Shown in pieces: positions 670-63,682 of a DNA stretch of 64,000 bases. The translations under genes were made by a program, and so were the position numbers. How positions within the stretch are numbered: position 1 is the stretch's first letter; every line of letters begins with the position of its first letter. This DNA comes from Eledone cirrhosa (taxonomy: Eukaryota), in NCBI GenBank assembly GCA_964016885.1, contig CAXHJY010000080.1, positions 62,001 to 126,000 of the forward strand. Reading direction: 5' to 3'. The notes beneath the pieces are model-generated. The model was not told where the DNA came from. It searched no databases and saw only the letters and a program-made list of their open reading frames with translations.

Positions 670-708
670 TAAGACCTGAAGTAACAACTCCACATCCAAA
701 ACCACCTG
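670..708 (+). CDS. Linker micro-exon A1 (VRPEVTTPHPKPP), 39 bp
   Basis: cttttccactttacag|taaga...ccacctg|gtaaga; phase 1-1; Pro/Thr-rich. Confidence 0.85.
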
Positions 709-9700: not shown

Positions 9701-12700
9701 ATTCTTTCTGTCCGGGTACGTATATTACGTAGATTATGCCAGTTGTTGTCGTTTCTTTCATGTCGGTCAACATCACTTTGTAGTGTCATTCTACATATTA
9801 ATTGTACACATGTTTATCGTGTTACATCTAATCTGTCTCTTTGGTCAATCATTTCTTTTGTTGTTCTTGCTGAAATTTCAGTTGAACGAGGTTTTGTTTT
9901 GTATTTTATCGATTGTAAATGTTGTTGTTACTGTTCACTATCAATGATATTTGTTCATATTATAATACACATGACAGTTTATATTTTGTCCAATATGTTT
10001 GTGAGAAATATTCAATTGAAAATATAATCAAATTGACACAATTATAGAATTAGATATTCTGTTTTGTCTATGTATTGTGATGGGCTGTTGCCAGAATTTG
10101 TATATTCATAAGTAATATTCAATTATATTTGTTCACATTGCAGAATATGTTCTCTCTAATGTGAATTATTATTGAAATTATTTCTTTTCTATGTGTTGAT
10201 ATCTATCCATATCACACTACATTCGTTATGTTGTTGCTGGTTACTCTTGAAGTTATCAACATAATATTGTTATCGTTATATATCAGTCTGTTTTTACTAA
10301 GTTCCTGTTATATGTTTGGATATTTCTGTTGTTATATGGTGTTTTGAACAAGATAATCCACTTGTTTCAGTAAGGTTACATGTCTCTATATAATATTTGT
10401 AAAGAGAATTTCCTCTTACCGTGATTGTGAACGCTAGGCATAACTATGAGTAAATCTGGAATTACTAATTATATCTGACTAGTTTATTGCACTTTTCCAC
10501 TTTACAGTAAGAACTGAAGTAACAACTCCACATCCAAAACCACCTGGTAAGATATTTTAAATGGTTTTCTTTGTTACTTAGTTTCAAATAAGAGATCTGT
10601 AACTATTGGCTAGAATTAAGTTCTTTAAAGTATACATGATCTAATTGAAGGAAAGTCTATGGAAATTTAGTGATTTCTTAAATATTTGAGTGTTATTAAA
10701 TTCTCTAGATGTTGTATGATAAATATTGAATTATTATATATGTGGCAGTGTTAATTGATGGCTACCTCCCTATTCTCTAGGTAAATGTAATGCTGCTGAA
10801 TCAGACATTGTGTTCGTTCTGGATTCTTCAACTAGCGTTACTGATGTGAACTTCAAGAAAATCTTAGCTTTTGTGAAAGACTTTCTATCGGAGGCTAGTA
10901 TTGACAATGGTAATGTGAGAGTAGGGGCAGTGATTTATAGCACTGACGTACAAGTGCAGTTTCATTTGAATCACTACCATTCAAAGAGAGATATCCTCAA
11001 TGCTATTGACAACATTGCCTATGTGTATGGAAGCACAAATACATATGGAGGTCTGCACACAGCCAGAAGACAGATGTTTACTGCAGAAAATGGTGACAGA
11101 GCCGGTATTCCTAATATTATTTTCCTTATTACTGATGGCGTTTCCAACATCAACGCTTTTCAAACCATACCAGAAGCCGAAGCTATTCGTGCAGAAAACA
11201 TCCATATTTACGCTATAGGTATAGGCCTTGCAGAAACTACAGAACTTGACAAAATTGCATCATATCCACCATCAGAAAACAGTTTCACTGTCGAAGATTT
11301 TAATCAGCTTTATGATTTAAAACACCAAATATTTGATTCTTTCTGTCCGGGTACGTATATTACGTAGATTATGCCAGTTGTTGTCGTTTCTTTCATGTCG
11401 GTCAACATCACTTTGTAGTGTCATTCTACATATTAATTGTACACATGTTTATCGTGTTACATCTAATCTGTCTCTTTGGTCAATCATTTCTTTTGTTGTT
11501 CTTGCTGAAATTTCAGTTGAACGAGGTTTTGTTTTGTATTTTATCGATTGTAAATGTTGTTGTTACTGTTCACTATCAATGATATTTGTTCATATTATAA
11601 TACACATAACAGTTTATATTTTGTGCAATATGTTTGTGAGAAATATTCTATTTAAAATATAATCAAATTGACACAATTATAGAATTAGATATTCTGTTTT
11701 GTCTATGTATTGTGATGGGCTGTTGTCCAGAATTTGTATATTGATAATGTTGATAGCTGTCCAGCACCATCAATGACATTGTCATTAATGGTTAATTATG
11801 AAGTAACCTTATTTTACCAAATTCAGTTAAATTGTTTTGTTTGTTTTTAAGTTAGTAAACATTGTTTTTGTTTTATATTAGTCTCTTCTCGTATGTTTCT
11901 GTTTATGTACTGATATTTCTTTCATATGATGTTTTCAGCTAGATAATCGACTTGTTACTTGTTTCATCAAAATTTCAAGCATCCATATGAATTATTTTTG
12001 TAGAGAGAAATTATTGACATTGTGAAAGTGATTTGAATTAATAATACTATATCAAAGTTTATACACTGTCTACATTAATAGTAGATGTATATTGTACCTT
12101 TATAAATTATATAAAATTAGACACAGTTATATAAGTTATCTCTCCTGTGTTGCAATATCCATGTAGTTTGGTGGGAATCTAATCCTTTTATTTAAAATGA
12201 GTTTATCTTCTTATTACAAAATATGTTTCTTTACCCTTTATGTGGCCTACATCCTTTGGTGTATTTACCTGCTACAGAATTATTTAAATATATGATCCAT
12301 CATATTTTACATTTAGTTCAACTGTATACATAATTTCCAACAACATTTCCAAGTAAGGGAAAAGCGGGCGTAAAATGATGATGATATACATATTTATAGG
12401 AAAAGAGTCAGGACCCCGACGGCTGAGCTCCGGCTGTTTCGACAGCTATTTCTGAACTCAAAACAGCCGGAGCTCAGCCGTCGGGGTCCTGACTCTTTTC
12501 CTGTTACCCACTCTACTACCCATAGTATCGAGTACTCTGGTGCATTATGGTTCACCTGGTTCCTTACCACACTTCCTTCATTATATACATATATTTTTTT
12601 TTTTCTGTTTTGCCTCTGAGACTGTTCTATTCATATTCTTATATTTTTCTCTCACTAATGAAATTCAATTATCCGTAACTCCAGATATTCCATCCTTCAT

Positions 12701-15700
12701 ATCATCACCACTTATATTGTAATTTATTCTTATTCATTATCTCTGTACATGTTCGCTTTTTCATTTTTGTGTTGACAGTTTACCACTTTCTTTCTTAGCT
12801 TTCAGATGTTACCTAAACGAGAAATCCTTGGCTTTAACAAGAAAACATATGTATGATACTACAGAAATGTCTAATAAACTATAACAATTATTTATAACAA
12901 TTATTTATCAAACACTTTCAATACTAACAGAGATGATGTTCATTTCAGTTGAAATTTGTTATTGTCTATGTGTTATTACTTGGCAGTTATTGAAACATCA
13001 GTTAAAATGATTTGTGGTATTCGTTCCAACTGTCTGTACTTTGAGAGTAAATACCACTGACTTCAACTTTGCCTTTCATCCATTTTAGGATGATCAATTA
13101 CCTGTCTAATCTGGACTTCATTCTCTCTCTCTCGCTCTCATACATTCATATTACTGTGTGCCTTCACATTGTCATTTGTAATTTATTATGATGCATTGTA
13201 GGTGAACAAACTTTTATTTTGTTGTTAACCTCGTTACATTCGTTCGTTTTCTCAATTTTACCGACAACTTTTAAAGGGATTTATTTTCAAAATCTCACTC
13301 TAAGTATCATTGTTTAATCTCTTTATGTTGTATTGAACAACATTATTGTATCTCAGCAGTGGCTGATGAGGATCTGCTCTCAATTCTTGTACTGTTAGCC
13401 AGATATTATACATGTACTGTATTTTTTAAGGTAATTGAGTTTTTTCCAGTGGAAACTTCTCTGCATCAATTTTCTTTTGTATGTGGTAACTTGACTCTTT
13501 CCAATATAATATAGTTCCTGGTGTTGTCTTTTAAGGTGTTTGTGATGATGTGGCCTTTTAAGGTGTTTGTGATGAGTTTTAGGTATCTCACCTTGAAAAC
13601 ATACAGCTGTTTTCTTTTTTTTTTACATGTTTGTTGTATAATGTGCAAACATCTGATGTACACAATATGGGGGTTGGGTTAAACTATCATTTTAAATATT
13701 TGTACTTTACTTTGGATTCTAATGAGCTTCTTATTTCACAATAGCTCACCCATCCATCTCAATGCCAAATTGGCCTTATATTTCCAGCAAAATACATATA
13801 TATATACGTATCTATATGAGAGAGAGAGTGAGAAAGAGAGATAGAGAGAGAGATGTTTTATTGCTGAAACTTCTTTTCAACAGCCTGTTTGACCAACATA
13901 AAAGACACTGCATAGTTTGGATATGGTGCAGCATATGACATTGTTGTACTTGCAGGCAGTATTTAGTATTGGTATTTCTAAAAGACTTTCATTTTAAAAT
14001 ATTTGCAATGATTTGCACAAAGATATGTTAAAATTTTATAAATATTTCTGACATATTCAGAATACCAAGTATCTAGTCTACAACAAAATTGATTTAATGT
14101 CATAAAATTAGACAAATATGGAAATATCATAAATAATGTATATTTAATTGAATGTCAAAACTTAACTTTACAAAATGGTTTGTTTTCACATGCATCAAGA
14201 ATTACAGTAAACTCATCTTGCCTGAGCCAGCCATTGTTCAATAGTAGACAATTGACATACACATGAATAGTTAGCATTTACATTACTCTATATTTACTAT
14301 TGTGGTTTCATGGTCAACACTTTATTTCACATAATTATCTCACATAATATCTAATCTATAAGATTTTGATATTGTTTATTTTGAGAATTATACCTTAACA
14401 TAAATATGAGCAGCCAGTTATGGCCTATTTGAAACAGGTGAGGGAATTCTGGCTGGATGTGGCTGATTTATAAGGGTTAAATAAACAAAGAACATACCTA
14501 ATGCATTCCAGAAAAATGTATAAAGCTAAATCTTTCTATCTTAAAAGTAATATATGCTCTTGATGGTTATCTTAATTATAAATAGTATATTTCTTAAAGG
14601 AATATGCTAGTGATGCAATATAGTCTTCAAAATATCTAGTTTGATAAACCGCAATCAAAATATATCTATTCTAACATAATCTTTGGGAAATTGATATGAA
14701 GGTATAAGGAAAACATATATATATATGCATATATACATATATATGTGAGTGTGTGTGTGTGTTTCATAAGCACATGGCTATTGATGGATTGGACATCACT
14801 CAGTTGTTTCAACTTACTACAATAAATATTAATTTTATTTCTCGCAGTTGTTGAAAACACTCCAGCACCTTTCATTACGACGACACCTAAGGGTAAGAAA
14901 TTTGTACTTCACATATTCTTCTATATACTTCTACACATGTCAGATTATTTAGGTGAAATAATTTTAATTATCAGAAGAAAATTCAGTGCTTTCTTCTAGA
15001 GATCTCTGTATGTAGTTCTGTCATGTGTATATGTTATGTTTTTGGTGTGTTTATTGTTTAATTATGATATCAGTAAAATAAAATTCAATATATTTGTCTT
15101 CATAAGTAGTCATGTCTTTCGTCTCTGAGATATGTGTTTAGTGTATTTTCTATCTTGTTCATACCTGTCCCCAAGATAACATCTTGAAATATTTCCAATA
15201 GATTGTTTAATGTTTGATATCCTCACACTCTAGTCTCCTCATATATTGTCTGTAATTTTATGTAGTGTCGTTTAATGTTGTCACCTGTCACCATATTGGT
15301 TAGTGTTTTGTTGTAGAATATTCTAGTAATGAATAAAACAATATTACATTATTATGTGTATATATATTCCAACATAAATATTGTGTTAATCCTTATTTGA
15401 TAATGTGAAATATTTTTGTCAAGTATTCATTGTGTAAAAGATAATACATTGCTATGCTCTAGTTTATAGAGTGTTAAGTGGAAATAGGATTTCAATGTTT
15501 TGATGTATCCATACTTTCTTAACTGTTATGTACTGTATCAATACAATGTACATGTAATGTAACATATTGTTCTGTTATGTCACTCAGTCTATGTTAAAAG
15601 ATAATGTTAGATTTATCTATCAGCCACTCTACATTATTCTATTAGTTAAAAACTTATCATAATGTTCTCCAGGTGGCTGCGGCAATACAAAATCTGACAT

Positions 15701-48700: not shown

Positions 48701-51700
48701 ATATCTTATTTGCTTCATGTCATTCTAGTGGAATTTTTGTTTATAAAATATAAAATTTCACTGTTGCCATATCTTCAGCTTTATGCATGTGTGAATTATT
48801 GTAAATAATAGAAACTGTATTTCTGTATAAATGAGTAGAATCATTGATAACCAGTGATTATGTAACTTTTGTGATATACTGGAAAGGTAACTGTGATATG
48901 AATGGAAGGCTGAATAATACTTTTCTTGTGACAAACTCTAACTTTCAGATATTCTTGTGACAAACTGTGACTTTCACACAAATACTAATAGATTTATTAC
49001 AGAACAACACTTATAATATATAGAACACATTACATAACAATTATTTCAATATTATCACTGGAATATTAATTAGTTATTCACAGTCAGCTATTGGAGATTA
49101 AACAGAAATATATATATATATAGTAACATATTTCAAAATATCAACATTTACATATTCTTATGAATATATAAAATATATTTCAATATTTCAGATTATCTAG
49201 CAATGTCTTACTAACAGATTTCACATCATATCTTTAAACTTACAACAATATTTTATTTCTCGCAGTTGTTGAAAAAACTCCAGCACCTGCTATTACATTA
49301 CCAACTAAGGGTAAGGCCCTTGTACTCCTCAACATACTCTTTTATGTTATATTGATATCTTTATGTCTATGTTAATCATAGCTACCTCTTTCTTTGTCAA
49401 TCTCTTATTTCTATATATAAACATTCATTGATCTGTCAGATGTTGTCAATATAATTCAGTAAATTATACTGTCTATCAGTAAAGTTCAATATATTTATCT
49501 ATAGATGTAGTTATATCTTTTGTCTCTGTGATATATGTTTGGTATGTTTTCTATATTTGTTATTTCTAAGATACCATCTTGAAATATTTCTTATTATTTG
49601 TTTGATCTTCTGACAATGTAGTCTCCTCATATGTGGTCTGTAGTTTCATGTTGTGTTGTTTATTTGGAATATTGTTTTATGTAGAGTTGTTATTGTTTTG
49701 TTGTAGTGTTTTGATAACAATTCAAACCATATCTTGTTATGTGAAGTTATATCTTACCTTAATAAGTTGATTTCTATATTGATATATTGTTTTTGTTGAT
49801 TCTTTGTTATGTGACAGTATATCCCTATGTACCAGTTGATGGTTTGTTATGTATCAGAATATATAGTTATGTTGTAATATTATTTCAATATTACCCTGTC
49901 ACCATCTTAACTGTTATGTACTGTATCAATACAATGTACATGTAATGTAACATATTGTTCTGTTATGTCACTCAGTCTATGTTAAAAGATAATGTTAGAT
50001 TTATCTATCAGCCACTCTACATTATTCTATTAGTTAAAAACTTATTATAATGTTCTCCAGGTGGCTGCGGCAATACAAAATCTGACATCATCTTCATTTT
50101 GGATTCCTCAACTAGTGTTCAAGCAGAAAATTTTCAGAAAATGCTCGATTTTGTAGTTGACTTTGTCTCTGCTGCTGATATTGACAGTGGCAATGTTAGA
50201 ATCGGTGCAGTACTCTACAGTACAGATGTGAAAATACAATTCCATTTAAATGATTTCCAAAGTAAACAACAAATGATCAAGGCAGTTGGTGAAATTGCCT
50301 ATGTTTATGGTAGTACAAACACTTATGGTGGACTAAACACAATGAGGACAGTAATGTTTACAAGAGAGAATGGTGACAGGCCATCTGTTGACAATATTGC
50401 CATACTTCTTACTGATGGTGTATCAAATATCAATTCATATCAGACTATTCCAGAAGCAGTGAAAGTTAGAGAAGATGGCATCCATATATATGCTATAGGT
50501 ATTGGTCTAACTGATACTACAGAATTGAGCAAGATTTCATCACTTCCTGTCAGTGAAAATATGTTTGTTGTCACTGATTTCAACGAATTATCGAATCTCA
50601 AGGAAAGAATCTTTGAACAATATTGCCCAGGTATAGCAATTAGCATGTGATAACAAAGTCATACTGTACTTGATACTATTACTAATATCCAATCCCTCAG
50701 TCATTTATCAATATTGCTTACTGCCATTATATAAAATATCAGCTTTATTAAATATCTAAGTCAGCTTTTACAATTCCTGCAGTTAACAGTTCTAATAATA
50801 TCAGTAAATATCCCATGTCATTGCGCTACATACCTTTCCCTTCCACCTTCTATAATGTATGTTATCCTATGATAACTCCTATTGCTTTATTAACAATGAC
50901 TCATCCATGCGATATCTGTTTGTCAGTTAGAATCAAATAACTGAAATTATATCTACCTTCTTTTTTAATATTATTTATTATCAAGGTTGAAATATTCTGT
51001 ACAATCTCTACAGTATATTTATATTCTAGTGATAACATTCCATATAACATTGACCTTCCAAATATATAACATTGATTATGAACTAATTTTTAATGACCCA
51101 ATACTCTGGCTGTGTATTAGTTTTACTGTTTCATTCTACAATTATTTCTCTTATAATTAACAGATTATTTTCTTCAATAAGTCGTTGTATTTCTAGAATC
51201 TTTGAATGATTCATATTAATAAAAACTAATGGAGACTAGATTGCTGTACACTCAATCTTCACAATTACCAGCATTTATTGATGTAATTACTCTGTATTTA
51301 ACACAGCTAATATCTCTGGTTTAAAACCTAGACATAAATTCCTAATATATACCAATAAGTCATAGATCCTTTACTATATGTGAAGATAATCTACCAATAT
51401 TCTTTATAATGCTTCTACAAAATATGATGCCATAACTGTTATGACAATACCTGCAGCATGTAATTCTGATAACGTCTACCAATATACTGAATTAGTGTAT
51501 AATATATCTTATTTGCTTCATGTCATTCTAGTGGAATTTTTGTTTATAAAATATAAAATTTCACTGTTGCCATATCTTCAGCTTTATGCATGTGTGAATT
51601 ATTGTAAATAATAGAAACTGTATTTCTGTATAAATGTGTAGATTAATTGATAACCAGTGATTATGTAACGTTTGTGATATTCTGGAAAGGTAACTGTGAT

Positions 51701-54700
51701 ATGAATGGAAGGCTGAATAATACTTTTCTTGTGACAAACTCTAACTTTCAGATATTCTTGTGACAAACTGTGACTTTCACACAAATACTGATAGATTTAT
51801 TACAGAACAACACTTATAATATATAGAACACATTACATAACAATTATTTCAATATCATCACTGGAATATTAATTAGTTATTCACAGTCAGCTATTGGAGA
51901 TTAAACAGAAATATATATAGTAACATATTTCAAAATATCAACATTTATATATTCTTATGAATATATAAATTATATTTCAATATTTCAGATTATCTATCAA
52001 TGTCTTACTAACAGATTTCACATCATATCTTTAAACTTACAACAATATTTTATTTCTCGCAGTTGTTGAAAAAACGCCAGCACCTGCTATTACATTACCA
52101 ACTAAGGGTAAGGCCCTTGTACTCCTCAACATACTCTTTTATGTTATATTGATATCTTTATGTCTATGTTAATCATAGCTACCTCTTTCTTTGTCAATCT
52201 CTTATTTCTATATATAAACATTCATTGATCTGTCAGATGTTGTCAATATAATTCAGTAAATTATACTGTCTATCAGTAAAGTTCAATATATTTATCTATA
52301 GATGTAGTTATATCTTTTGTCTCTGTGATATATGATTGGTATGTTTTCTATATTTGTTATTTCTAAGATACCATCTTGAAATATTTCTTATTATTTGTTT
52401 GATCTCCTGACAATGTAGTTTCCTCATATGTGGTCTGTAGTTTCATGTTGTGTTGTTTATTTGGAATATTGTTTTATGTAGAGTTGTTATTGTTTTGTTG
52501 TAGTGTTTTGGTAACAATTCAAACCATATCTTGTTATGTGAAGTTATATCTTACCTTAATAAGTTGATTTCTATATTGATATATTGTTTTTGTTGATTCT
52601 TTGTTATGTGACTGTATATCCCTATGTACCAGTTGATGGTTTGTTATGTATCAGAATATATAGTTATGTTGTAATATTATTTCAATATTACCATGTCACC
52701 ATCTTAACCGTTCAGTACTGTATCAATACAATGTACATGTAATGTAACATATTGTTCTGTTATGTCACTCAGTCTATGTTAAAAGATAATGTTAGATTTA
52801 TCTATCAGCCACTCTACATTATTCTATTAGTTAAAAACTTATTATAATGTTCTCCAGGTGGCTGCGGCAATACAAAATCTGACATCATCTTCATTTTGGA
52901 TTCCTCAACTAGTGTCCAAGCAGAAAATTTTCAGAAAATGCTCGATTTTGTAGTTGACTTTGTCTCTGCTGCTGATATTGACAGTGGCAATGTTAGAATC
53001 GGTGCAGTACTCTACAGTACAGATGTGAAAATACAATTTCATTTAAATGATTTCCAAAGTAAACAACAAATGATCATGGCAGTTGGTGAAATTGCCTATG
53101 TTTATGGTAGTACAAACACTTATGGTGGACTAAACACAATGAGGACAGTAATGTTTACAAGAGAGAATGGTGACAGGCCATCTGTTGACAATATTGCCAT
53201 ACTTCTTACTGATGGTGTATCAAATATCAATTCATATCAGACTATTCCAGAAGCAGTGAAAGTTAGAGAAGATGGCATCCATATATATGCTATAGGTATT
53301 GGTCTAACTGATACTACAGAATTGAGCAAGATTTCATCACTTCCTGTCAGTGAAAATATGTTTGTTGTCACTGATTTCAACGAATTATCGAATCTCAAGG
53401 AAAGAATCTTTGAACAATATTGCCCAGGTATAGCAATTAGCATGTGATAACAAAGTCATACTGTACTTGATACTATTACTAATATCCAATCCCTCAGTCA
53501 TTTATCAATATTGCTTACTGCCATTATATAAAATATCAGCTTTATTAAATATCTAAGTCAGCTTTTACAATTCCTGCAGTTAACAGTTCTAATAATATCA
53601 GTAAATATCCCATGTCATTGCGCTACATACCTTTCCCTTCCACCTTCTATAATGTATGTTATCCTATGATAACTCCTATTGCTTTATTAACAATGACTCA
53701 TCCATGCGATATCTGTTTGTCAGTTAGAATCAAATAACTGAAATTATATCTACCTTCTTTTTTAATATTATTTATTATCAAGGTTGAAATATTCTGTACA
53801 ATCTCTACAGTATATTTATATTCTAGTGATAACATTCCATATAACATTGACCTTCCAAATATATAACATTGATTATGAACTAATTTTTAATGACCCAATA
53901 CTCTGGCTGTGTATTAGTTTTACTGTTTCATTCTACAATTATTTCTCTTATAATTAACAGATTATTTTCTTCAATAAGTCGTTATATTTCTAGAATCTTA
54001 GAATGATTCATATTAATAAAAACTAATGGAGACAAGATTGCTGTACACTCAATCTTCACAATTACCAGCATTTATTGATGTAATTACTCTGTATTTAACA
54101 CAGCTAATATCTCTGCTTTAAAACCTAGACATAAATTCCTAATATATACCATTAAGTCATAGATCCTTTACTATATGTGAAGATAATCTACCAATATTCT
54201 TTATAATGCTTCTACAAAATATGATGCCATAACTGTTATGACAATACCTGCAGCATGTAATTGTGATAACGTCTACCAATATACTGAATTAGTGTATAAT
54301 ATATCTTATTTGCTTCATGTCATTCTAGTGGAATTTTTGTTTATAAAATATAAAATTTCACTGTTGCCATATCTTCAGCTTTATGCATGTGTGAATTATT
54401 GTAAATAATAGAAACTGTATTTCTGTATAAATGAGTAGAATCATTGATAACCAGTGATTATGTAACTTTTGTGATATACTGGAAAGGTAACTGTGATATG
54501 AATGGAAGGCTGAATAATACTTTTCTTGTGACAAACTCTAACTTTCAGATATTCTTGTGACAAACTGTGACTTTCACACAAATACTAATAGATTTATTAC
54601 AGAACAACACTTATAATATATAGAACACATTACATAACAATTATTTCAATATTATCACTGGAATATTAATTAGTTATTCACAGTCAGCTATTGGAGATTA

Positions 54701-57700
54701 AACAGAAATATATATATATATAGTAACATATTTCAAAATATCAACATTTACATATTCTTATGAATATATAAAATATATTTCAATATTTCAGATTATCTAG
54801 CAATGTCTTACTAACAGATTTCACATCATATCTTTAAACTTACAACAATATTTTATTTCTCGCAGTTGTTGAAAAAACTCCAGCACCTGCTATTACATTA
54901 CCAACTAAGGGTAAGGCCCTTGTACTCCTCAACATACTCTTTTATGTTATATTGATATCTTTATGTCTATGTTAATCATAGCTACCTCTTTCTTTGTCAA
55001 TCTCTTATTTCTATATATAAACATTCATTGATCTGTCAGATGTTGTCAATATAATTCAGTAAATTATACTGTCTATCAGTAAAGTTCAATATATTTATCT
55101 ATAGATGTAGTTATATCTTTTGTCTCTGTGATATATGTTTGGTATGTTTTCTATATTTGTTATTTCTAAGATACCATCTTGAAATATTTCTTATTATTTG
55201 TTTGATCTTCTGACAATGTAGTCTCCTCATATGTGGTCTGTAGTTTCATGTTGTGTTGTTTATTTGGAATATTGTTTTATGTAGAGTTGTTATTGTTTTG
55301 TTGTAGTGTTTTGATAACAATTCAAACCATATCTTGTTATGTGAAGTTATATCTTACCTTAATAAGTTGATTTCTATATTGATATATTGTTTTTGTTGAT
55401 TCTTTGTTATGTGACAGTATATCCCTATGTACCAGTTGATGGTTTGTTATGTATCAGAATATATAGTTATGTTGTAATATTATTTCAATATTACCCTGTC
55501 ACCATCTTAACTGTTATGTACTGTATCAATACAATGTACATGTAATGTAACATATTGTTCTGTTATGTCACTCAGTCTATGTTAAAAGATAATGTTAGAT
55601 TTATCTATCAGCCACTCTACATTATTCTATTAGTTAAAAACTTATTATAATGTTCTCCAGGTGGCTGCGGCAATACAAAATCTGACATCATCTTCATTTT
55701 GGATTCCTCAACTAGTGTTCAAGCAGAAAATTTTCAGAAAATGCTCGATTTTGTAGTTGACTTTGTCTCTGCTGCTGATATTGACAGTGGCAATGTTAGA
55801 ATCGGTGCAGTACTCTACAGTACAGATGTGAAAATACAATTCCATTTAAATGATTTCCAAAGTAAACAAGAAATGATCAAGGCAGTTGGTGAAATTGCCT
55901 ATGTTTATGGTAGTACAAACACTTATGGTGGACTAAACACAATGAGGACAGTAATGTTTACAAGAGAGAATGGTGACAGGCCATCTGTTGACAATATTGC
56001 CATACTTCTTACTGATGGTGTATCAAATATCAATTCATATCAGACTATTCCAGAAGCAGTGAAAGTTAGAGAAGATGGCATCCATATATATGCTATAGGT
56101 ATTGGTCTAACTGATACTACAGAATTGAGCAAGATTTCATCACTTCCTGTCAGTGAAAATATGTTTGTTGTCACTGATTTCAACGAATTATCGAATCTCA
56201 AGGAAAGAATCTTTGAACAATATTGCCCAGGTATAGCAATTAGCATGTGATAACAAAGTCATACTGTACTTGATACTATTACTAATATCCAATCCCTCAG
56301 TCATTTATCAATATTGCTTACTGCCATTATATAAAATATCAGCTTTATTAAATATCTAAGTCAGCTTTTACAATTCCTGCAGTTAACAGTTCTAATAATA
56401 TCAGTAAATATCCCATGTCATTGCGCTACATACCTTTCCCTTCCACCTTCTATAATGTATGTTATCCTATGATAACTCCTATTGCTTTATTAACAATGAC
56501 TCATCCATGCGATATCTGTTTGTCAGTTAGAATCAAATAACTGAAATTATATCTACCTTCTTTTTTAATATTATTTATTATCAAGGTTGAAATATTCTGT
56601 ACAATCTCTACAGTATATTTATATTCTAGTGATAACATTCCATATAACATTGACCTTCCAAATATATAACATTGATTATGAACTAATTTTTAATGACCCA
56701 ATACTCTGGCTGTGTATTAGTTTTACTGTTTCATTCTACAATTATTTCTCTTATAATTAACAGATTATTTTCTTCAATAAGTCGTTATATTTCTAGAATC
56801 TTAGAATGATTCATATTAATAAAAACTAATGGAGACAAGATTGCTGTACACTCAATCTTCACAATTACCAGCATTTATTGATGTAATTACTCTGTATTTA
56901 ACACAGCTAATATCTCTGCTTTAAAACCTAGACATAAATTCCTAATATATACCATTAAGTCATAGATCCTTTACTATATGTGAAGATAATCTACCAATAT
57001 TCTTTATAATGCTTCTACAAAATATGATGCCATAACTGTTATGACAATACCTGCAGCATGTAATTGTGATAACGTCTACCAATATACTGAATTAGTGTAT
57101 AATATATCTTATTTGCTTCATGTCATTCTAGTGGAATTTTTGTTTATAAAATATAAAATTTCACTGTTGCCATATCTTCAGCTTTATGCATGTGTGAATT
57201 ATTGTAAATAATAGAAACTGTATTTCTGTATAAATGAGTAGAATCATTGATAACCAGTGATTATGTAACTTTTGTGATATACTGGAAAGGTAACTGTGAT
57301 ATGAATGGAAGGCTGAATAATACTTTTCTTGTGACAAACTCTAACTTTCAGATATTCTTGTGACAAACTGTGACTTTCACACAAATACTAATAGATTTAT
57401 TACAGAACAACACTTATAATATATAGAACACATTACATAACAATTATTTCAATATTATCACTGGAATATTAATTAGTTATTCACAGTCAGCTATTGGAGA
57501 TTAAACAGAAATATATATATATATAGTAACATATTTCAAAATATCAACATTTACATATTCTTATGAATATATAAAATATATTTCAATATTTCAGATTATC
57601 TAGCAATGTCTTACTAACAGATTTCACATCATATCTTTAAACTTACAACAATATTTTATTTCTCGCAGTTGTTGAAAAAACTCCAGCACCTGCTATTACA

Positions 57701-60700
57701 TTACCAACTAAGGGTAAGGCCCTTGTACTCCTCAACATACTCTTTTATGTTATATTGATATCTTTATGTCTATGTTAATCATAGCTACCTCTTTCTTTGT
57801 CAATCTCTTATTTCTATATATAAACATTCATTGATCTGTCAGATGTTGTCAATATAATTCAGTAAATTATACTGTCTATCAGTAAAGTTCAATATATTTA
57901 TCTATAGATGTAGTTATATCTTTTGTCTCTGTGATATATGTTTGGTATGTTTTCTATATTTGTTATTTCTAAGATACCATCTTGAAATATTTCTTATTAT
58001 TTGTTTGATCTTCTGACAATGTAGTCTCCTCATATGTGGTCTGTAGTTTCATGTTGTGTTGTTTATTTGGAATATTGTTTTATGTAGAGTTGTTATTGTT
58101 TTGTTGTAGTGTTTTGATAACAATTCAAACCATATCTTGTTATGTGAAGTTATATCTTACCTTAATAAGTTGATTTCTATATTGATATATTGTTTTTGTT
58201 GATTCTTTGTTATGTGACAGTATATCCCTATGTACCAGTTGATGGTTTGTTATGTATCAGAATATATAGTTATGTTGTAATATTATTTCAATATTACCCT
58301 GTCACCATCTTAACTGTTATGTACTGTATCAATACAATGTACATGTAATGTAACATATTGTTCTGTTATGTCACTCAGTCTATGTTAAAAGATAATGTTA
58401 GATTTATCTATCAGCCACTCTACATTATTCTATTAGTTAAAAACTTATTATAATGTTCTCCAGGTGGCTGCGGCAATACAAAATCTGACATCATCTTCAT
58501 TTTGGATTCCTCAACTAGTGTTCAAGCAGAAAATTTTCAGAAAATGCTCGATTTTGTAGTTGACTTTGTCTCTGCTGCTGATATTGACAGTGGCAATGTT
58601 AGAATCGGTGCAGTACTCTACAGTACAGATGTGAAAATACAATTCCATTTAAATGATTTCCAAAGTAAACAACAAATGATCAAGGCAGTTGGTGAAATTG
58701 CCTATGTTTATGGTAGTACAAACACTTATGGTGGACTGAACACAATGAGGACAGTAATGTTTACAAGAGAGAATGGTGACAGGCCATCTGTTGACAATAT
58801 TGCCATACTTCTTACTGATGGTGTATCAAATATCAATTCATATCAGACTATTCCAGAAGCAGTGAAAGTTAGAGAAGATGGCATCCATATATATGCTATA
58901 GGTATTGGTCTAACTGATACTACAGAATTGAGCAAGATTTCATCACTTCCTGTCAGTGAAAATATGTTTGTTGTCACTGATTTCAACGAATTATCGAATC
59001 TCAAGGAAAGAATCTTTGAACAATATTGCCCAGGTATAGCAATTAGCATGTGATAACAAAGTCATACTGTACTTGATACTATTACTAATATCCAATCCCT
59101 CAGTCATTTATCAATATTGCTTACTGCCATTATATAAAATATCAGCTTTATTAAATATCTAAGTCAGCTTTTACAATTCCTGCAGTTAACAGTTCTAATA
59201 ATATCAGTAAATATCCCATGTCATTGCGCTACATACCTTTCCCTTCCACCTTCTATAATGTATGTTATCCTATGATAACTCCTATTGCTTTATTAACAAT
59301 GACTCATCCATGCGATATCTGTTTGTCAGTTAGAATCAAATAACTGAAATTATATCTACCTTCTTTTTTAATATTATTTATTATCAAGGTTGAAATATTC
59401 TGTACAATCTCTACAGTATATTTATATTCTAGTGATAACATTCCATATAACATTGACCTTCCAAATATATAACATTGATTATGAACTAATTTTTAATGAC
59501 CCAATACTCTGGCTGTGTATTAGTTTTACTGTTTCATTCTACAATTATTTCTCTTATAATTAACAGATTATTTTCTTCAATAAGTCGTTGTATTTCTAGA
59601 ATCTTTGAATGATACATATTAATAAAAACTAATGGAGACAAGATTGCTGTACACTCAATCTTCACAATTACCAGCATTTATTGATGTAATTACTCTGTAT
59701 TTAACACAGCTAATATCTCTGCTTTAAAACCTAGACATAAATTCCTAATATATACCATTAAGTCATAGATCCTTTACTATATGTGAAGATAATCTACCAA
59801 TATTCTTTATAATGCTTCTACAAAATATGATGCCATAACTGTTATGACAATACCTGCAGCATGTAATTGTGATAACGTCTACCAATATACTGAATTAGTG
59901 TATAATATATCTTATTTGCTTCATGTCATTCTAGTGGAATTTTTGTTTATAAAATATAAAATTTCACTGTTGCCATATCTTCAGCTTTATGCATGTGTGA
60001 ATTATTGTAAATAATAGAAACTGTATTTCTGTATAAATGAGTAGAATCATTGATAACCAGTGATTATGTAACTTTTGTGATATACTGGAAAGGTAACTGT
60101 GATATGAATGGAAGGCTGAATAATACTTTTCTTGTGACAAACTCTAACTTTCAGATATTCTTGTGACAAACTGTGACTTTCACACAAATACTAATAGATT
60201 TATTACAGAACAACACTTATAATATATAGAACACATTACATAACAATTATTTCAATATTATCACTGGAATATTAATTAGTTATTCACAGTCAGCTATTGG
60301 AGATTAAACAGAAATATATATATATATAGTAACATATTTCAAAATATCAACATTTACATATTCTTATGAATATATAAAATATATTTCAATATTTCAGATT
60401 ATCTAGCAATGTCTTACTAACAGATTTCACATCATATCTTTAAACTTACAACAATATTTTATTTCTCGCAGTTGTTGAAAAAACTCCAGCACCTGCTATT
60501 ACATTACCAACTAAGGGTAAGGCCCTTGTACTCCTCAACATACTCTTTTATGTTATATTGATATCTTTATGTCTATGTTAATCATAGCTACCTCTTTCTT
60601 TGTCAATCTCTTATTTCTATATATAAACATTCATTGATCTGTCAGATGTTGTCAATATAATTCAGTAAATTATACTGTCTATCAGTAAAGTTCAATATAT

Positions 60701-63682
60701 TTATCTATAGATGTAGTTATATCTTTTGTCTCTGTGATATATGTTTGGTATGTTTTCTATATTTGTTATTTCTAAGATACCATCTTGAAATATTTCTTAT
60801 TATTTGTTTGATCTTCTGACAATGTAGTCTCCTCATATGTGGTCTGTAGTTTCATGTTGTGTTGTTTATTTGGAATATTGTTTTATGTAGAGTTGTTATT
60901 GTTTTGTTGTAGTGTTTTGATAACAATTCAAACCATATCTTGTTATGTGAAGTTATATCTTACCTTAATAAGTTGATTTCTATATTGATATATTGTTTTT
61001 GTTGATTCTTTGTTATGTGACAGTATATCCCTATGTACCAGTTGATGGTTTGTTATGTATCAGAATATATAGTTATGTTGTAATATTATTTCAATATTAC
61101 CCTGTCACCATCTTAACTGTTATGTACTGTATCAATACAATGTACATGTAATGTAACATATTGTTCTGTTATGTCACTCAGTCTATGTTAAAAGATAATG
61201 TTAGATTTATCTATCAGCCACTCTACATTATTCTATTAGTTAAAAACTTATTATAATGTTCTCCAGGTGGCTGCGGCAATACAAAATCTGACATCATCTT
61301 CATTTTGGATTCCTCAACTAGTGTTCAAGCAGAAAATTTTCAGAAAATGCTCGATTTTGTAGTTGACTTTGTCTCTGCTGCTGATATTGACAGTGGCAAT
61401 GTTAGAATCGGTGCAGTACTCTACAGTACAGATGTGAAAATACAATTCCATTTAAATGATTTCCAAAGTAAACAACAAATGATCAAGGCAGTTGGTGAAA
61501 TTGCCTATGTTTATGGTAGTACAAACACTTATGGTGGACTAAACACAATGAGGACAGTAATGTTTACAAGAGAGAATGGTGACAGGCCATCTGTTGACAA
61601 TATTGCCATACTTCTTACTGATGGTGTATCAAATATCAATTCATATCAGACTATTCCAGAAGCAGTGAAAGTTAGAGAAGATGGCATCCATATATATGCT
61701 ATAGGTATTGGTCTAACTGATACTACAGAATTGAGCAAGATTTCATCACTTCCTGTCAGTGAAAATATGTTTGTTGTCACTGATTTCAACGAATTATCGA
61801 ATCTCAAGGAAAGAATCTTTGAACAATATTGCCCAGGTATAGCAATTAGCATGTGATAACAAAGTCATACTGTACTTGATACTATTACTAATATCCAATC
61901 CCTCAGTCATTTATCAATATTGCTTACTGCCATTATATAAAATATCAGCTTTATTAAATATCTAAGTCAGCTTTTACAATTCCTGCAGTTAACAGTTCTA
62001 ATAATATCAGTAAATATCCCATGTCATTGCGCTACATACCTTTCCCTTCCACCTTCTATAATGTATGTTATCCTATGATAACTCCTATTGCTTTATTAAC
62101 AATGACTCATCCATGCGATATCTGTTTGTCAGTTAGAATCAAATAACTGAAATTATATCTACCTTCTTTTTTAATATTATTTATTATCAAGGTTGAAATA
62201 TTCTGTACAATCTCTACAGTATATTTATATTCTAGTGATAACATTCCATATAACATTGACCTTCCAAATATATAACATTGATTATGAACTAATTTTTAAT
62301 GACCCAATACTCTGGCTGTGTATTAGTTTTACTGTTTCATTCTACAATTATTTCTCTTATAATTAACAGATTATTTTCTTCAATAAGTCGTTGTATTTCT
62401 AGAATCTTTGAATGATACATATTAATAAAAACTAATGGAGACAAGATTGCTGTACACTCAATCTTCACAATTACCAGCATTTATTGATGTAATTACTCTG
62501 TATTTAACACAGCTAATATCTCTGCTTTAAAACCTAGACATAAATTCCTAATATATACCATTAAGTCATAGATCCTTTACTATATGTGAAGATAATCTAC
62601 CAATATTCTTTATAATGCTTCTACAAAATATGATGCCATAACTGTTATGACAATACCTGCAGCATGTAATTGTGATAACGTCTACCAATATACTGAATTA
62701 GTGTATAATATATCTTATTTGCTTCATGTCATTCTAGTGGAATTTTTGTTTATAAAATATAAAATTTCACTGTTGCCATATCTTCAGCTTTATGCATGTG
62801 TGAATTATTGTAAATAATAGAAACTGTATTTCTGTATAAATGAGTAGAATCATTGATAACCAGTGATTATGTAACGTTTGTGATATACTGGAAAGGTAAC
62901 TGTGATATGAATGGAAGGCTGAATAATACTTTTCTTGTGACAAACTCTAACTTTCAGATATTCTTGTGACAAACTGTGACTTTCACACAAATACTAATAG
63001 ATTTTGTCTTCATATTGATATTCGTAATCTGTAATACCTAAATATTTACAAAGTAAATTAAATTAATTTAATATTTAAACTTTATCTGTAAGAAATATGT
63101 CATATCTCTCTTGAAATATGTTTCTTACTTTCAATACCAACTGACTTAAAATATAACATTTATATGTAATACACTTCAATATGTAGGTAATATATTACAT
63201 TGTTTTACTTTCAATTTACTATCAACTATTTAGAATTCTATCTTAATGAGTTATGTGATTATTATTTCCATAAAAGGAGGAGAAATAGTGACACCTAGTA
63301 GAGTTCCAATAATTGAAACAACCAGAAAGAGAGGTGAGATATTACTGAAACATATTTATATATACTTAGATATGTTACAGAACAACACTTATAATATATA
63401 GAACATATTACATAACAATTATTTCAATATCATCACTGGAATATTAATTAGTTATTCACAGTCAGCTATTGGAGATTAAACAGAAATATATATAGTAACA
63501 TATTTCAAAATATCAACATTTACATATTCTTATGAATATATAAAGTATATTTCAATATTTCAGATTATCTAGCAATGTCTTACTAACAGATTTCACATCA
63601 TATCTTTAAACTTACAACAATATTTTATTTCTCGCAGTTGTTGAAAAAACTCCAGCACCTGCTATTACATTACCAACTAAGG
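670..63682 (+). CDS. Internal part of a giant multi-exon poly-VWA extracellular protein gene (collagen VI/matrilin-like VWA domains, no Gly-X-Y seen); 52 predicted exons, about 4,978 aa in window, open at both ends
   Basis: 24 VWA exons (570 bp), 7 linkers of 39 bp, 18 linkers of 45 bp and 3 exons of 57 bp. All are AG..GT flanked, multiples of 3, phase 1-1, with no in-frame stop when joined. The ORF-track starts are GTG/TTG codons inside exons, not real starts. Confidence 0.88.
943..1512 (+). CDS. VWA exon A1 (GKCNAAESDIVFVLDSSTS...DSFCP), F variant
   Basis: cctattctctag|gtaaatgt acceptor and ccgg|gtacgt donor; 570 bp; DxSxS...T...TDG MIDAS motif. Confidence 0.93.
2308..2346 (+). CDS. Linker micro-exon A2
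   Basis: Same sequence and splice sites as A1 linker. Confidence 0.85.
2584..3153 (+). CDS. VWA exon A2 (NALQ variant)
   Basis: ORF 2613..3170; same splice sites as A1. Confidence 0.93.
3949..3987 (+). CDS. Linker micro-exon A3
   Basis: As A1 linker. Confidence 0.85.
4224..4793 (+). CDS. VWA exon A3 (NALQ)
   Basis: ORF 4253..4810; same splice sites. Confidence 0.93.
5589..5627 (+). CDS. Linker micro-exon A4
   Basis: As A1 linker. Confidence 0.85.
5864..6433 (+). CDS. VWA exon A4 (NALQ)
   Basis: ORF 5893..6450; same splice sites. Confidence 0.93.
7229..7267 (+). CDS. Linker micro-exon A5
   Basis: As A1 linker. Confidence 0.85.
7504..8073 (+). CDS. VWA exon A5 (NALQ)
   Basis: ORF 7533..8090; same splice sites. 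Confidence 0.93.
8873..8911 (+). CDS. Linker micro-exon A6 (VRTEVTTPHPKPP, P>T variant)
   Basis: acag|taagaact...cctg|gtaaga. Confidence 0.85.
9146..9715 (+). CDS. VWA exon A6 (NAFQ)
   Basis: ORF 9175..9732; same splice sites. Confidence 0.93.
10508..10546 (+). CDS. Linker micro-exon A7 (P>T variant)
   Basis: As A6 linker. Confidence 0.85.
10781..11350 (+). CDS. VWA exon A7 (NAFQ), last type-A copy
   Basis: ORF 10810..11367; same splice sites. Confidence 0.93.
11747..11791 (+). pseudogene. Decayed B-type linker pseudo-exon (VDSCPAPSMTLSLM)
   Basis: 29/45 nt ungapped match (hand count) to the 45-bp B linker exon; the acceptor AG and donor GT positions are both mutated. Confidence 0.45.
12398..12502. 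repeat. Perfect 42-bp inverted repeat with 21-nt loop (GC-rich hairpin; possible Penelope-like/retrozyme or MITE remnant)
   Basis: 12398-12439 aggaaaagagtcaggaccccgacggctgagctccggctgttt is the exact reverse complement of 12461-12502. Confidence 0.9.
13528..13575. repeat. Short direct repeat, 21-bp motif twice with 27-bp period
   Basis: cttttaaggtgtttgtgatga at 13528 and 13555. Confidence 0.8.
13792..13853. repeat. Compound (TA)n/(GA)n microsatellite
   Basis: atacatatatatatacgtatctatatgagagagagagtgagaaagagagatagagagagaga. Confidence 0.8.
14715..14762. repeat. Compound (TA)n/(TG)n microsatellite
   Basis: atatatatatatgcatatatacatatatatgtgagtgtgtgtgtgtgt. Confidence 0.8.
14848..14892 (+). CDS. 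Diverged linker micro-exon B0 (VVENTPAPFITTTPK), joins array A to array B
   Basis: ttttatttctcgcag|ttgttgaa...cctaagg|gtaaga; 45 bp; paralogous to the B linkers. Confidence 0.85.
15673..16242 (+). CDS. VWA exon B1 (GGCGNTKSDIIFILDSSTS...EQYCP; STNV, QQMIN)
   Basis: gttctccag|gtggctgc acceptor and cccag|gtatag donor; 570 bp; MIDAS intact. Confidence 0.93.
17361..17417. repeat. 29-bp tandem duplication in the B intron (present in every B unit)
   Basis: ttcttgtgacaaactctaactttcagata / ttcttgtgacaaactgtgactttcacac. Confidence 0.8.
17698..17742 (+). CDS. Linker micro-exon B-L1 (VVEKTPAPAITLPTK), 45 bp
   Basis: tttctcgcag|ttgttgaa...actaagg|gtaagg; phase 1-1. Confidence 0.87.
18491..19060 (+). 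CDS. VWA exon B2 (QQMIM)
   Basis: ORF 18529..19080; same splice sites as B1. Confidence 0.93.
20499..20543 (+). CDS. Linker micro-exon B-L2
   Basis: As B-L1. Confidence 0.87.
21294..21863 (+). CDS. VWA exon B3 (QQMIK)
   Basis: ORF 21332..21883. Confidence 0.93.
23296..23340 (+). CDS. Linker micro-exon B-L3
   Basis: As B-L1. Confidence 0.87.
24091..24660 (+). CDS. VWA exon B4 (QQMIM)
   Basis: ORF 24129..24680. Confidence 0.93.
26099..26143 (+). CDS. Linker micro-exon B-L4
   Basis: As B-L1. Confidence 0.87.
26894..27463 (+). CDS. VWA exon B5 (QEMIK)
   Basis: ORF 26932..27483. Confidence 0.93.
28902..28946 (+). CDS. Linker micro-exon B-L5
   Basis: As B-L1. Confidence 0.87.
29697..30266 (+). 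CDS. VWA exon B6 (QEMIK)
   Basis: ORF 29735..30286. Confidence 0.93.
31705..31749 (+). CDS. Linker micro-exon B-L6
   Basis: As B-L1. Confidence 0.87.
32500..33069 (+). CDS. VWA exon B7 (QEMIK)
   Basis: ORF 32538..33089. Confidence 0.93.
34508..34552 (+). CDS. Linker micro-exon B-L7
   Basis: As B-L1. Confidence 0.87.
35303..35872 (+). CDS. VWA exon B8 (QQMIK)
   Basis: ORF 35341..35892. Confidence 0.93.
37311..37355 (+). CDS. Linker micro-exon B-L8
   Basis: As B-L1. Confidence 0.87.
38106..38675 (+). CDS. VWA exon B9 (QEMIK)
   Basis: ORF 38144..38695. Confidence 0.93.
40116..40172 (+). CDS. Extra 57-bp micro-exon X1 (GGEIVTPSRVPIIETTRKR)
   Basis: ttatttccataaaag|gaggagaa...aagagag|gtgaga; 19 codons, phase 1-1, stop-free, purine-rich island within the 369-bp block of long units. 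Confidence 0.72.
40477..40521 (+). CDS. Linker micro-exon B-L9
   Basis: As B-L1. Confidence 0.87.
41272..41841 (+). CDS. VWA exon B10 (QQMIK)
   Basis: ORF 41310..41861. Confidence 0.93.
43282..43338 (+). CDS. Extra 57-bp micro-exon X2 (...TTRKR)
   Basis: Identical to X1. Confidence 0.72.
43643..43687 (+). CDS. Linker micro-exon B-L10
   Basis: As B-L1. Confidence 0.87.
44438..45007 (+). CDS. VWA exon B11 (QQMIM)
   Basis: ORF 44476..45027. Confidence 0.93.
46463..46507 (+). CDS. Linker micro-exon B-L11
   Basis: As B-L1. Confidence 0.87.
47258..47827 (+). CDS. VWA exon B12 (QQMIM)
   Basis: ORF 47296..47847. Confidence 0.93.
49266..49310 (+). CDS. Linker micro-exon B-L12
   Basis: As B-L1. 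Confidence 0.87.
50061..50630 (+). CDS. VWA exon B13 (QQMIK)
   Basis: ORF 50099..50650. Confidence 0.93.
52063..52107 (+). CDS. Linker micro-exon B-L13
   Basis: As B-L1. Confidence 0.87.
52858..53427 (+). CDS. VWA exon B14 (QQMIM)
   Basis: ORF 52896..53447. Confidence 0.93.
54866..54910 (+). CDS. Linker micro-exon B-L14
   Basis: As B-L1. Confidence 0.87.
55661..56230 (+). CDS. VWA exon B15 (QEMIK)
   Basis: ORF 55699..56250. Confidence 0.93.
57669..57713 (+). CDS. Linker micro-exon B-L15
   Basis: As B-L1. Confidence 0.87.
58464..59033 (+). CDS. VWA exon B16 (QQMIK)
   Basis: ORF 58502..59053. Confidence 0.93.
60472..60516 (+). CDS. Linker micro-exon B-L16
   Basis: As B-L1. Confidence 0.87.
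61267..61836 (+). CDS. VWA exon B17 (QQMIK)
   Basis: ORF 61305..61856. Confidence 0.93.
63277..63333 (+). CDS. Extra 57-bp micro-exon X3 (...TTRKR)
   Basis: Identical to X1. Confidence 0.72.
63638..63682 (+). CDS. Linker micro-exon B-L17
   Basis: As B-L1; the next VWA exon is expected just beyond the window end. Confidence 0.87.

Follow-up and report, generated by a model that had tools for sequence, protein, structure and literature searches.

An intact, recombining coding macrosatellite of VWA exons within a probable giant multi-VWA gene of Eledone cirrhosa

Results

Two arrays of VWA exons in the window

The window, the whole stretch of 64,000 nt that was analysed, corresponds to positions 62,001 to 126,000 of C107, an unplaced contig (164,757 nt, 0 N) of the 3.0 Gb assembly of E. 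cirrhosa. Two tandem arrays were found in it, the first with a period of approximately 1,640 nt (up to ~11.7 kb) and the second with periods of 2,803 or 3,166 nt (from ~15 kb), separated by a single-copy stretch. All 24 long open reading frames (199 to 202 codons) are located on the plus strand, and each encloses a 570-nt exon flanked by AG and GT, seven of them of type A and 17 of type B. Micro-exons are located between these VWA exons (7 of 39 nt in array A and 18 of 45 nt in array B, the first starting at 670 and the last ending at 63682), and three further ones of 57 nt are present in the window, all in long B units. The features are listed below in window coordinates unless the contig is given.

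670..11350, + strand: array A, last 7 of 39 units, each a 39-nt micro-exon and a 570-nt VWA exon; period 1,635-1,659 nt
943-1512, 2584-3153, 4224-4793, 5864-6433, 7504-8073, 9146-9715, 10781-11350, + strand: VWA exons of array A in the window
670..10546, + strand: linker micro-exons of array A, 7 of 39 nt, phase 1, 58% Pro/Thr/Ser; starts at 670, 2308, 3949, 5589, 7229, 8873, 10508
C107:10,278-73,350, + strand: array A, whole
11351..14847, + strand: A-to-B intron, single-copy, 3,497 nt, containing common interspersed repeats
14848..15672, + strand: diverged edge copy of the B linker micro-exon (14848-14892) and its intron, ~75% identical to interior copies
15673..63682, + strand: array B, first 17 of 26 units, each a 570-nt VWA exon followed by a 45-nt linker micro-exon (from 17698 to 63638-63682)
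15673, 18491, 21294, 24091, 26894, 29697, 32500, 35303, 38106, 41272, 44438, 47258, 50061, 52858, 55661, 58464, 61267, + strand: starts of the VWA exons of array B in the window
40116..40172, + strand: second linker micro-exon, 57 nt, in a long B unit
43282..43338, + strand: second linker micro-exon, 57 nt, in a long B unit
63277..63333, + strand: second linker micro-exon, 57 nt, in a long B unit
C107:77,673-152,148, + strand: array B, whole

All exons in the window are of phase 1-1, and joining the 52 of them yielded 4,977 aa without a stop. This is in line with the original prediction, made from the letters alone, that the 24 open reading frames are 570-bp exons alternating with Pro/Thr-rich micro-exons in one frame of about 4,980 aa. 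Both arrays were also correctly expected to leave the window, and they turned out larger than claimed, with 32 extra A copies leftward and nine extra B copies rightward, so that C107 carries 65 intact 570-nt VWA exons (39 A and 26 B). The near-identity ascribed to all 24 domains applies within each type (at least 98.9%) but not across types, since A and B are 63% identical. Joined alone, both arrays of C107 encode 13,423 aa without a stop. The 57-nt second linker is exclusive to the long (~3,166-nt) B units, which make up 10 of 25 inter-domain intervals; as it is homologous to a 19-residue linker of Octopus sinensis, it is likely ancestral and lost from the short B units. Open reading frames on the reverse strand or off-frame inside the units were rejected as by-products. 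A long inverted repeat (12406-12499) lies within a very high-copy interspersed element (depth >200,000), a further copy of which was seen at L001:9440-9470, and intronic minisatellites at both ends of C107 (L001:2,470-3,030 and L011:690-960) yield long spurious open reading frames.

The encoded domain

In a search with the Pfam profile PF00092, types A and B were both recognised as VWA domains (E 8e-46 and 9e-44; 157 and 150 bits at a cut-off of 23.8). The MIDAS (DxSxS, T, D) is intact in 65 of 65 clonal domains, and DxSxS is kept in 13 of the 22 unique domains of the predicted gene. The terminal cysteines, Cys2 and Cys188, are likewise present in all 65 clonal domains, which contain no N-glycosylation sequon and have a net charge of about -11 each. 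The linkers consist of 33-58% Pro/Thr/Ser. The predicted structure is a confident VWA fold, Rossmann-like alpha/beta (pLDDT 91), with a TM score of 0.90 to 6SNK (COL6A3 N2). The nearest solved structures are collagen VI N2, integrin I domains and mussel PTMP1.

The remaining parts of the gene

Outside the arrays, one degenerate VWA exon was located at 1.6 kb of C107 along with two small linker exons, and the last 9 kb of the contig contain three or more Pro/Thr micro-exons. For the degenerate domain, no longer homologue was found among 698 candidates (0/698), and the metagenome contigs contained no relative. That C107 is a duplicate haplotig of an assembled region was rejected; its ends match elsewhere in the genome only via interspersed repeats.

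On contig C21, a cluster of divergent VWA exons on the same strand extends from 19.48 to 19.64 Mb and is interrupted by a 200-N gap at 19,505,916. Left of the gap, three degenerate VWA exons were found, and 16 kb before the first of them lies a candidate signal exon (19,468,5xx; acceptor, ATG, hydrophobic core and a phase-1 GTAAGT donor), one of seven loci returned by a crude scan. Right of the gap (C21:19,507,287-19,549,513; L015-L019), approximately 56 phase-1 micro-exons, mostly of 39 nt and in nested repeats, encode a Pro/Val/Thr stalk about twice as long as that of the O. sinensis model. Two VWA exons further downstream, at 19,585,554 and 19,621,368 (L023 and L027), are without a counterpart in that model, and the first resembles the cuttlefish protein CAE1248473 by eye.

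The O. sinensis model, XP_036368516.1, is a computed one. It starts inside a B domain and contains five identical B domains (85% to B here), joined by a 15-residue linker identical to the product of the 45-nt B exon. These are followed by peptides matching micro-exons of the C107 tail (157,842 and 163,158), then by the first micro-exons right of the C21 gap (19,507,287 onward) and the Pro/Val/Thr stalk. Its 3' part comprises 15 VWA and 4 EGF domains mapping in order on C21, with 68-92% for most pieces. In Sepia pharaonis, accessions from one contig follow the same kind of order, namely B-type (CAE1248467, 468 and 471), C21-type (473) and 3' end (477). Since the O. sinensis model links the B repeats, the micro-exons of the C107 end and the VWA/EGF gene of C21, which has an assembly gap at this point, C107 likely fills that gap. 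As judged from these sequence matches, the 3' end of C107 is very likely followed by the part of C21 that lies right of the gap. The joins of the 5' exons of C21 to C107 and of A to B would follow from order, strand and phase; no model or read joining either pair was found. A direct overlap between the C107 ends and the gap flanks was not found either, one 14-nt match being taken as chance. Read-derived contigs enter the gap by ~420 and ~430 nt from either side, and none of those listed spans it.

Together, the 65 clonal and 22 unique VWA domains amount to 87, so that the whole gene likely encodes ~87 VWA domains and ~18,600 aa by a rough sum that leaves unassembled sequence uncounted. Both the exon model and the claim of one giant multi-VWA gene have good support from the sequence and from the orthologous model of O. 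sinensis. The flanks, in which a signal-peptide exon and terminal domains were to be looked for, provided a candidate for the former and the VWA/EGF 3' part on C21, but no orthologue bridges the 5' side. From the candidate signal exon and an orthologue without a hydrophobic anchor (highest 19-residue hydropathy 1.58, no membrane-like stretch) we infer, as had been proposed, that the product would be secreted. The tail of the orthologue has a short Asp/Glu-rich stretch, judged by eye. Gly-X-Y runs were found neither in the O. sinensis orthologue (no run of at least 5) nor in the assembled plus-strand open reading frames of C21:19.38-19.67 Mb and the non-array ends of C107 (no run of at least 6).

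Selection, recombination and concerted evolution

All 65 VWA exons are 570 nt long without a stop or indel, and the introns fall into several length classes. In array A, the pairwise difference was 0.0028 in the exon versus 0.0072 in the remaining sequence of the unit (p 1e-4, Fisher test on variable sites); the corresponding values for B were 0.0032 and 0.0073, a difference that is not significant (p 0.12). Exons are therefore 2.3-2.6 times less variable than the remainder of the unit. Among 19 exon variants, 8 are synonymous compared to ~4 expected, a modest excess (p 0.036). Between A and B, synonymous sites are saturated and dN is 0.30.

The units are mostly distinct (33 of 38 in A, 23 of 25 in B), and most of the variants are common to several units, arranged in ordered higher-order blocks. 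Four-gamete violations were detected in 71 of 528 site pairs in A and 270 of 1,035 in B, and unit similarity decays with distance (Mantel p 0.0005 and 0.013, respectively). Recombination among units is thus observed. As every cassette exon is of phase 1-1, units can be added, dropped and homogenised by unequal crossing-over or gene conversion without a break of the frame, and these processes are the presumed mechanism.

In a small tree, which omitted five long-branch domains and all but two of the unique O. sinensis domains, B domains of cuttlefish and octopods formed one clade (100/100), within which the copies of this genome (100/98) and those of O. sinensis were placed in separate subclades. 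In a quick version of a larger tree, the domains of this genome branched outside the pair of O. sinensis and O. bimaculoides in most domain trios. Copies are closer within than between species, and units recombine, as in the concerted evolution of exon cassettes; from the trees, the grouping of B copies by species may reflect either this process or recent expansions that occurred repeatedly. The border of the array, with its B linker and intron ~75% identical to the interior copies, escaped homogenisation.

The gene may be real and its copy number nonetheless the result of neutral macrosatellite turnover, in which selection keeps the exons intact but 5, 26 or 65 copies would serve equally well, and the originally proposed tuning of valency by copy number would not apply. 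Among the alternatives this one survives best, even if it is on balance improbable. Mutational turnover is expected from symmetric cassettes, copies cluster by species, and clonal runs recur in unrelated VWA genes (see below). It is opposed by the amplification of the same B slot in this octopod, in O. sinensis and in the cuttlefish, a sign that repeats at this position may be persistently favoured.

Transcript structure

In a Logan contig of 4,715 nt, a stretch of 1,380 encoded residues is identical to the 3' model of the cuttlefish. The corresponding region on C21 spans ~15 kb and many exons, so that the contig is a spliced transcript. It covers only the unique 3' part, with a linker exon at its beginning; the first 19 residues deviate from the model, which could mean an internal start.

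The donors of the B units are non-optimal (GTATAG), and ATTAAA or AATAAA hexamers are located downstream in 26 of 26 B units, so that early polyadenylation or skipping is possible. One gene might then give rise to mRNAs carrying subsets of cassettes through exon skipping or intronic polyadenylation, resulting in a ladder of shorter multi-VWA proteins, with the full 87-domain chain rare or absent. Such subsets would always stay in frame, all cassette exons being symmetric (phase 1-1), and the start of the cuttlefish transcript at a linker exon of the 3' part would fit as well. We regard this as unlikely, since none of the 65 copies is damaged, consecutive units are joined in the models of O. 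sinensis and cuttlefish, and 38 of 39 A donors have no polyA-like hexamer nearby.

Less probable still is that, in place of a single transcript, the locus comprises two or three adjacent members of one gene family (one for the 5' exons on C21, one for array A, and one for array B with the 3' part). No orthologous model covers the 5' exons of C21 together with A and B, that of O. sinensis begins within B, and the A domain of O. bimaculoides belongs to a stand-alone model; moreover, sequence is missing on both sides of C107. Three AATAAA hexamers are present in the A-to-B intron, and one weak signal-like open reading frame was found at C107:2,474, but the latter runs into a minisatellite. No signal-like exon recurs with the units, the A-to-B intron (11351..14847) contains no signal-peptide-like exon, and no stop-bearing last exon was found after A. 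The phase of the last A exon fits that of the first B micro-exon on the same strand, which also argues for a single gene.

The depth of read-derived contigs was 361-536 for A units, 202-429 for B units and 6-21 for the single-copy intron, giving ratios of ~27-54 (A) and ~17-31 (B); this is a rough check, as depth is not a copy number, and the three runs behave as DNA from one sample of one study, possibly the source sample and hence not independent. Over-expansion of a few copies by the assembler, conceivable for an unplaced contig with units >98% identical, is very improbable given this depth, the differences between units, the ordered blocks of shared variants and the four-gamete violations. 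Shared variants, recombination and species-specific homogenisation point to unequal crossing-over and not to misassembly.

Relationship to known VWA proteins

Orthologues were found in O. sinensis (LOC115223644, XP_036368516.1, 4,624 aa, annotated as 'uncharacterized'), O. bimaculoides (A0A0L8FLC0, A0A0L8FYL2 and XP_014783330.1) and S. pharaonis (CAE1248467-477, annotated as 'COL6A'). They have in common with the gene of E. cirrhosa the B domain (85%; 77% in cuttlefish), the identical linker, the same stalk and the same ordered VWA/EGF 3' part, but are fragments or truncated models with at most five clonal copies, and neither the 5' end nor array A is seen in any of them. No paper citing four of these accessions and no description of the gene in print were found in the literature searched; the supplement of PMC11431876 may list the O. 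sinensis orthologue.

Clonal runs, defined as at least 6 domains with a sister of at least 90% identity, were found among the 18 homologues examined in the abalone Haliotis rufescens (XP_048237149.1, 7 identical domains and a signal-like N-terminus), the freshwater mussel Sinanodonta (KAL3854705.1, 6), the fish Cebidichthys (col6a3, XP_068581260.1, 20 of 22), the white shark Carcharodon (XP_041056050.1, 12 of 20) and the lamprey Petromyzon (XP_075909057.1, 13 of 17). In others of the 18, e.g. amphioxus (21 divergent domains), Mytilus and Nematostella, there is none. In the models with clonal runs, as in this gene, VWA domains of a single large extracellular protein were recently amplified in tandem or homogenised, but these expansions are separate (those tested from molluscs group by species) and the models have at most 22 domains compared to 65 clonal and 22 unique ones here. 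The largest VWA count among the best 150 hits from 1.84 billion representatives was 22 matched stretches. The statement that the arrays are far beyond anything known is consequently correct for the number of domains and not for the kind of protein. The expansion in vertebrate collagen VI-like genes (fish col6a3, white shark and lamprey; 12-20 near-identical domains) may itself be undescribed.

A first genome-wide look at VWA exons (213 candidates, 150 scored) revealed about nine more at C4:319.99-320.89 Mb with near-equal scores (40-41% to B), several of them ~14 kb apart, possibly another young array or a gene cluster. Further clusters of single-exon VWA domains are located at C1:270.9-282.7 Mb, C2:90.5-117.2 Mb, C4:1.3-3.6 Mb and C4:144.4-144.5 Mb.

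Collagen VI alpha-3 resembles the predicted protein in its tandem VWA domains and their fold (the TM score of 0.90 was to its N2 domain). Both collagen VI alpha-3 and the matrilins are ~30% identical to it; the gene described here has no collagen triple helix, possesses Pro/Thr stalks and is far larger. The VWA-EGF alternation typical of matrilins is confined to the 3' quarter of the orthologue, whose last VWA domains are interspersed with 4 EGF domains. Matrilins carry a C-terminal coiled-coil oligomerisation domain.

The closest known proteins in kind are the molluscan VWA proteins without a triple helix (VWAPs) of pearl oyster nacre (PMC5597905), mussel PTMP1 (PDB 4CN8) and the slug matrilin-like Sm40/Sm85 (cited in PMC4275877), which are collagen-like VWA proteins with a MIDAS and no Gly-X-Y helix, are themselves extracellular and are proposed to cross-link matrix networks. 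They have few VWA domains (two in PTMP1) compared to ~87, 65 of them clonal, and a chitin-binding domain was not seen here. The gene belongs with these helix-less molluscan VWA matrix proteins and would work like them; it is not collagen VI.

VWA proteins are also reported from molluscan secretions, namely slug mucus and a semislug adhesive (PMC4275877, PMC11178922) and snail mucus (PMC10475054). In nacre, helix-less VWAPs are proposed to cross-link networks (PMC5597905), in the byssus PTMP1 couples collagens (PMC4597212), and the skin mucus of octopus contains VWA-domain and 'cartilage matrix' proteins, given without accessions in the text (PMC11431876). None of these passages ties the present gene to a tissue.

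Discussion

We consider the window to be the middle of arrays of 39 A and 26 B units, likely at the centre of one gene for a predicted secreted chain of ~87 VWA domains (~18,600 aa, ~2 MDa) that would cross-link matrix or mucus through many metal-dependent sites, and assign this reading a probability of roughly 0.6. In the proposed order, the chain would begin with the signal exon and three degenerate VWA domains (C21, left of the gap), continue on C107 with one degenerate VWA domain, 39 A domains, 26 B domains and Pro/Thr micro-exons, and end on C21 right of the gap with the Pro/Val/Thr stalk (~56 micro-exons), 12 single-exon VWA domains, the VWA/EGF run and the acidic tail. At its MIDAS, each clonal domain would bind, via Mg, Ca or Mn, to an acidic side chain on a partner such as collagen or another matrix protein. 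Dozens of equal weak sites on flexible, likely O-glycosylated linkers might then provide high avidity and cross-link a gel. Metal bridging, O-glycosylation of the linkers and avidity are deduced by analogy to known VWA biology.

A wider proposal is put forward tentatively, at less than even odds. Coleoid cephalopods would possess one giant, as yet undescribed secreted gene, in E. cirrhosa fully translated to an 87-VWA, ~2-MDa chain among the largest secreted animal proteins, and its two clonal blocks would be kept homogeneous and resized by unequal crossing-over, and would determine how avid and how stiff a mucus, glue or soft matrix is.

What is new is the scale; proteins of this kind and amplification of this type were already known. 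If fully translated, the gene would encode 87 VWA domains, compared to at most 22 in any VWA protein among the searches run. Current cephalopod annotations hide it as scattered 'COL6A-like' fragments, and the orthologue is truncated and uncharacterised in RefSeq. The placement of C107 into the gap of C21 is a concrete fix for the scaffolding, and the predicted chain is a named candidate for the proteomics of cephalopod mucus and matrix. The arrays may also serve as a natural test of whether the valency of identical MIDAS domains tunes the mechanics of a gel.
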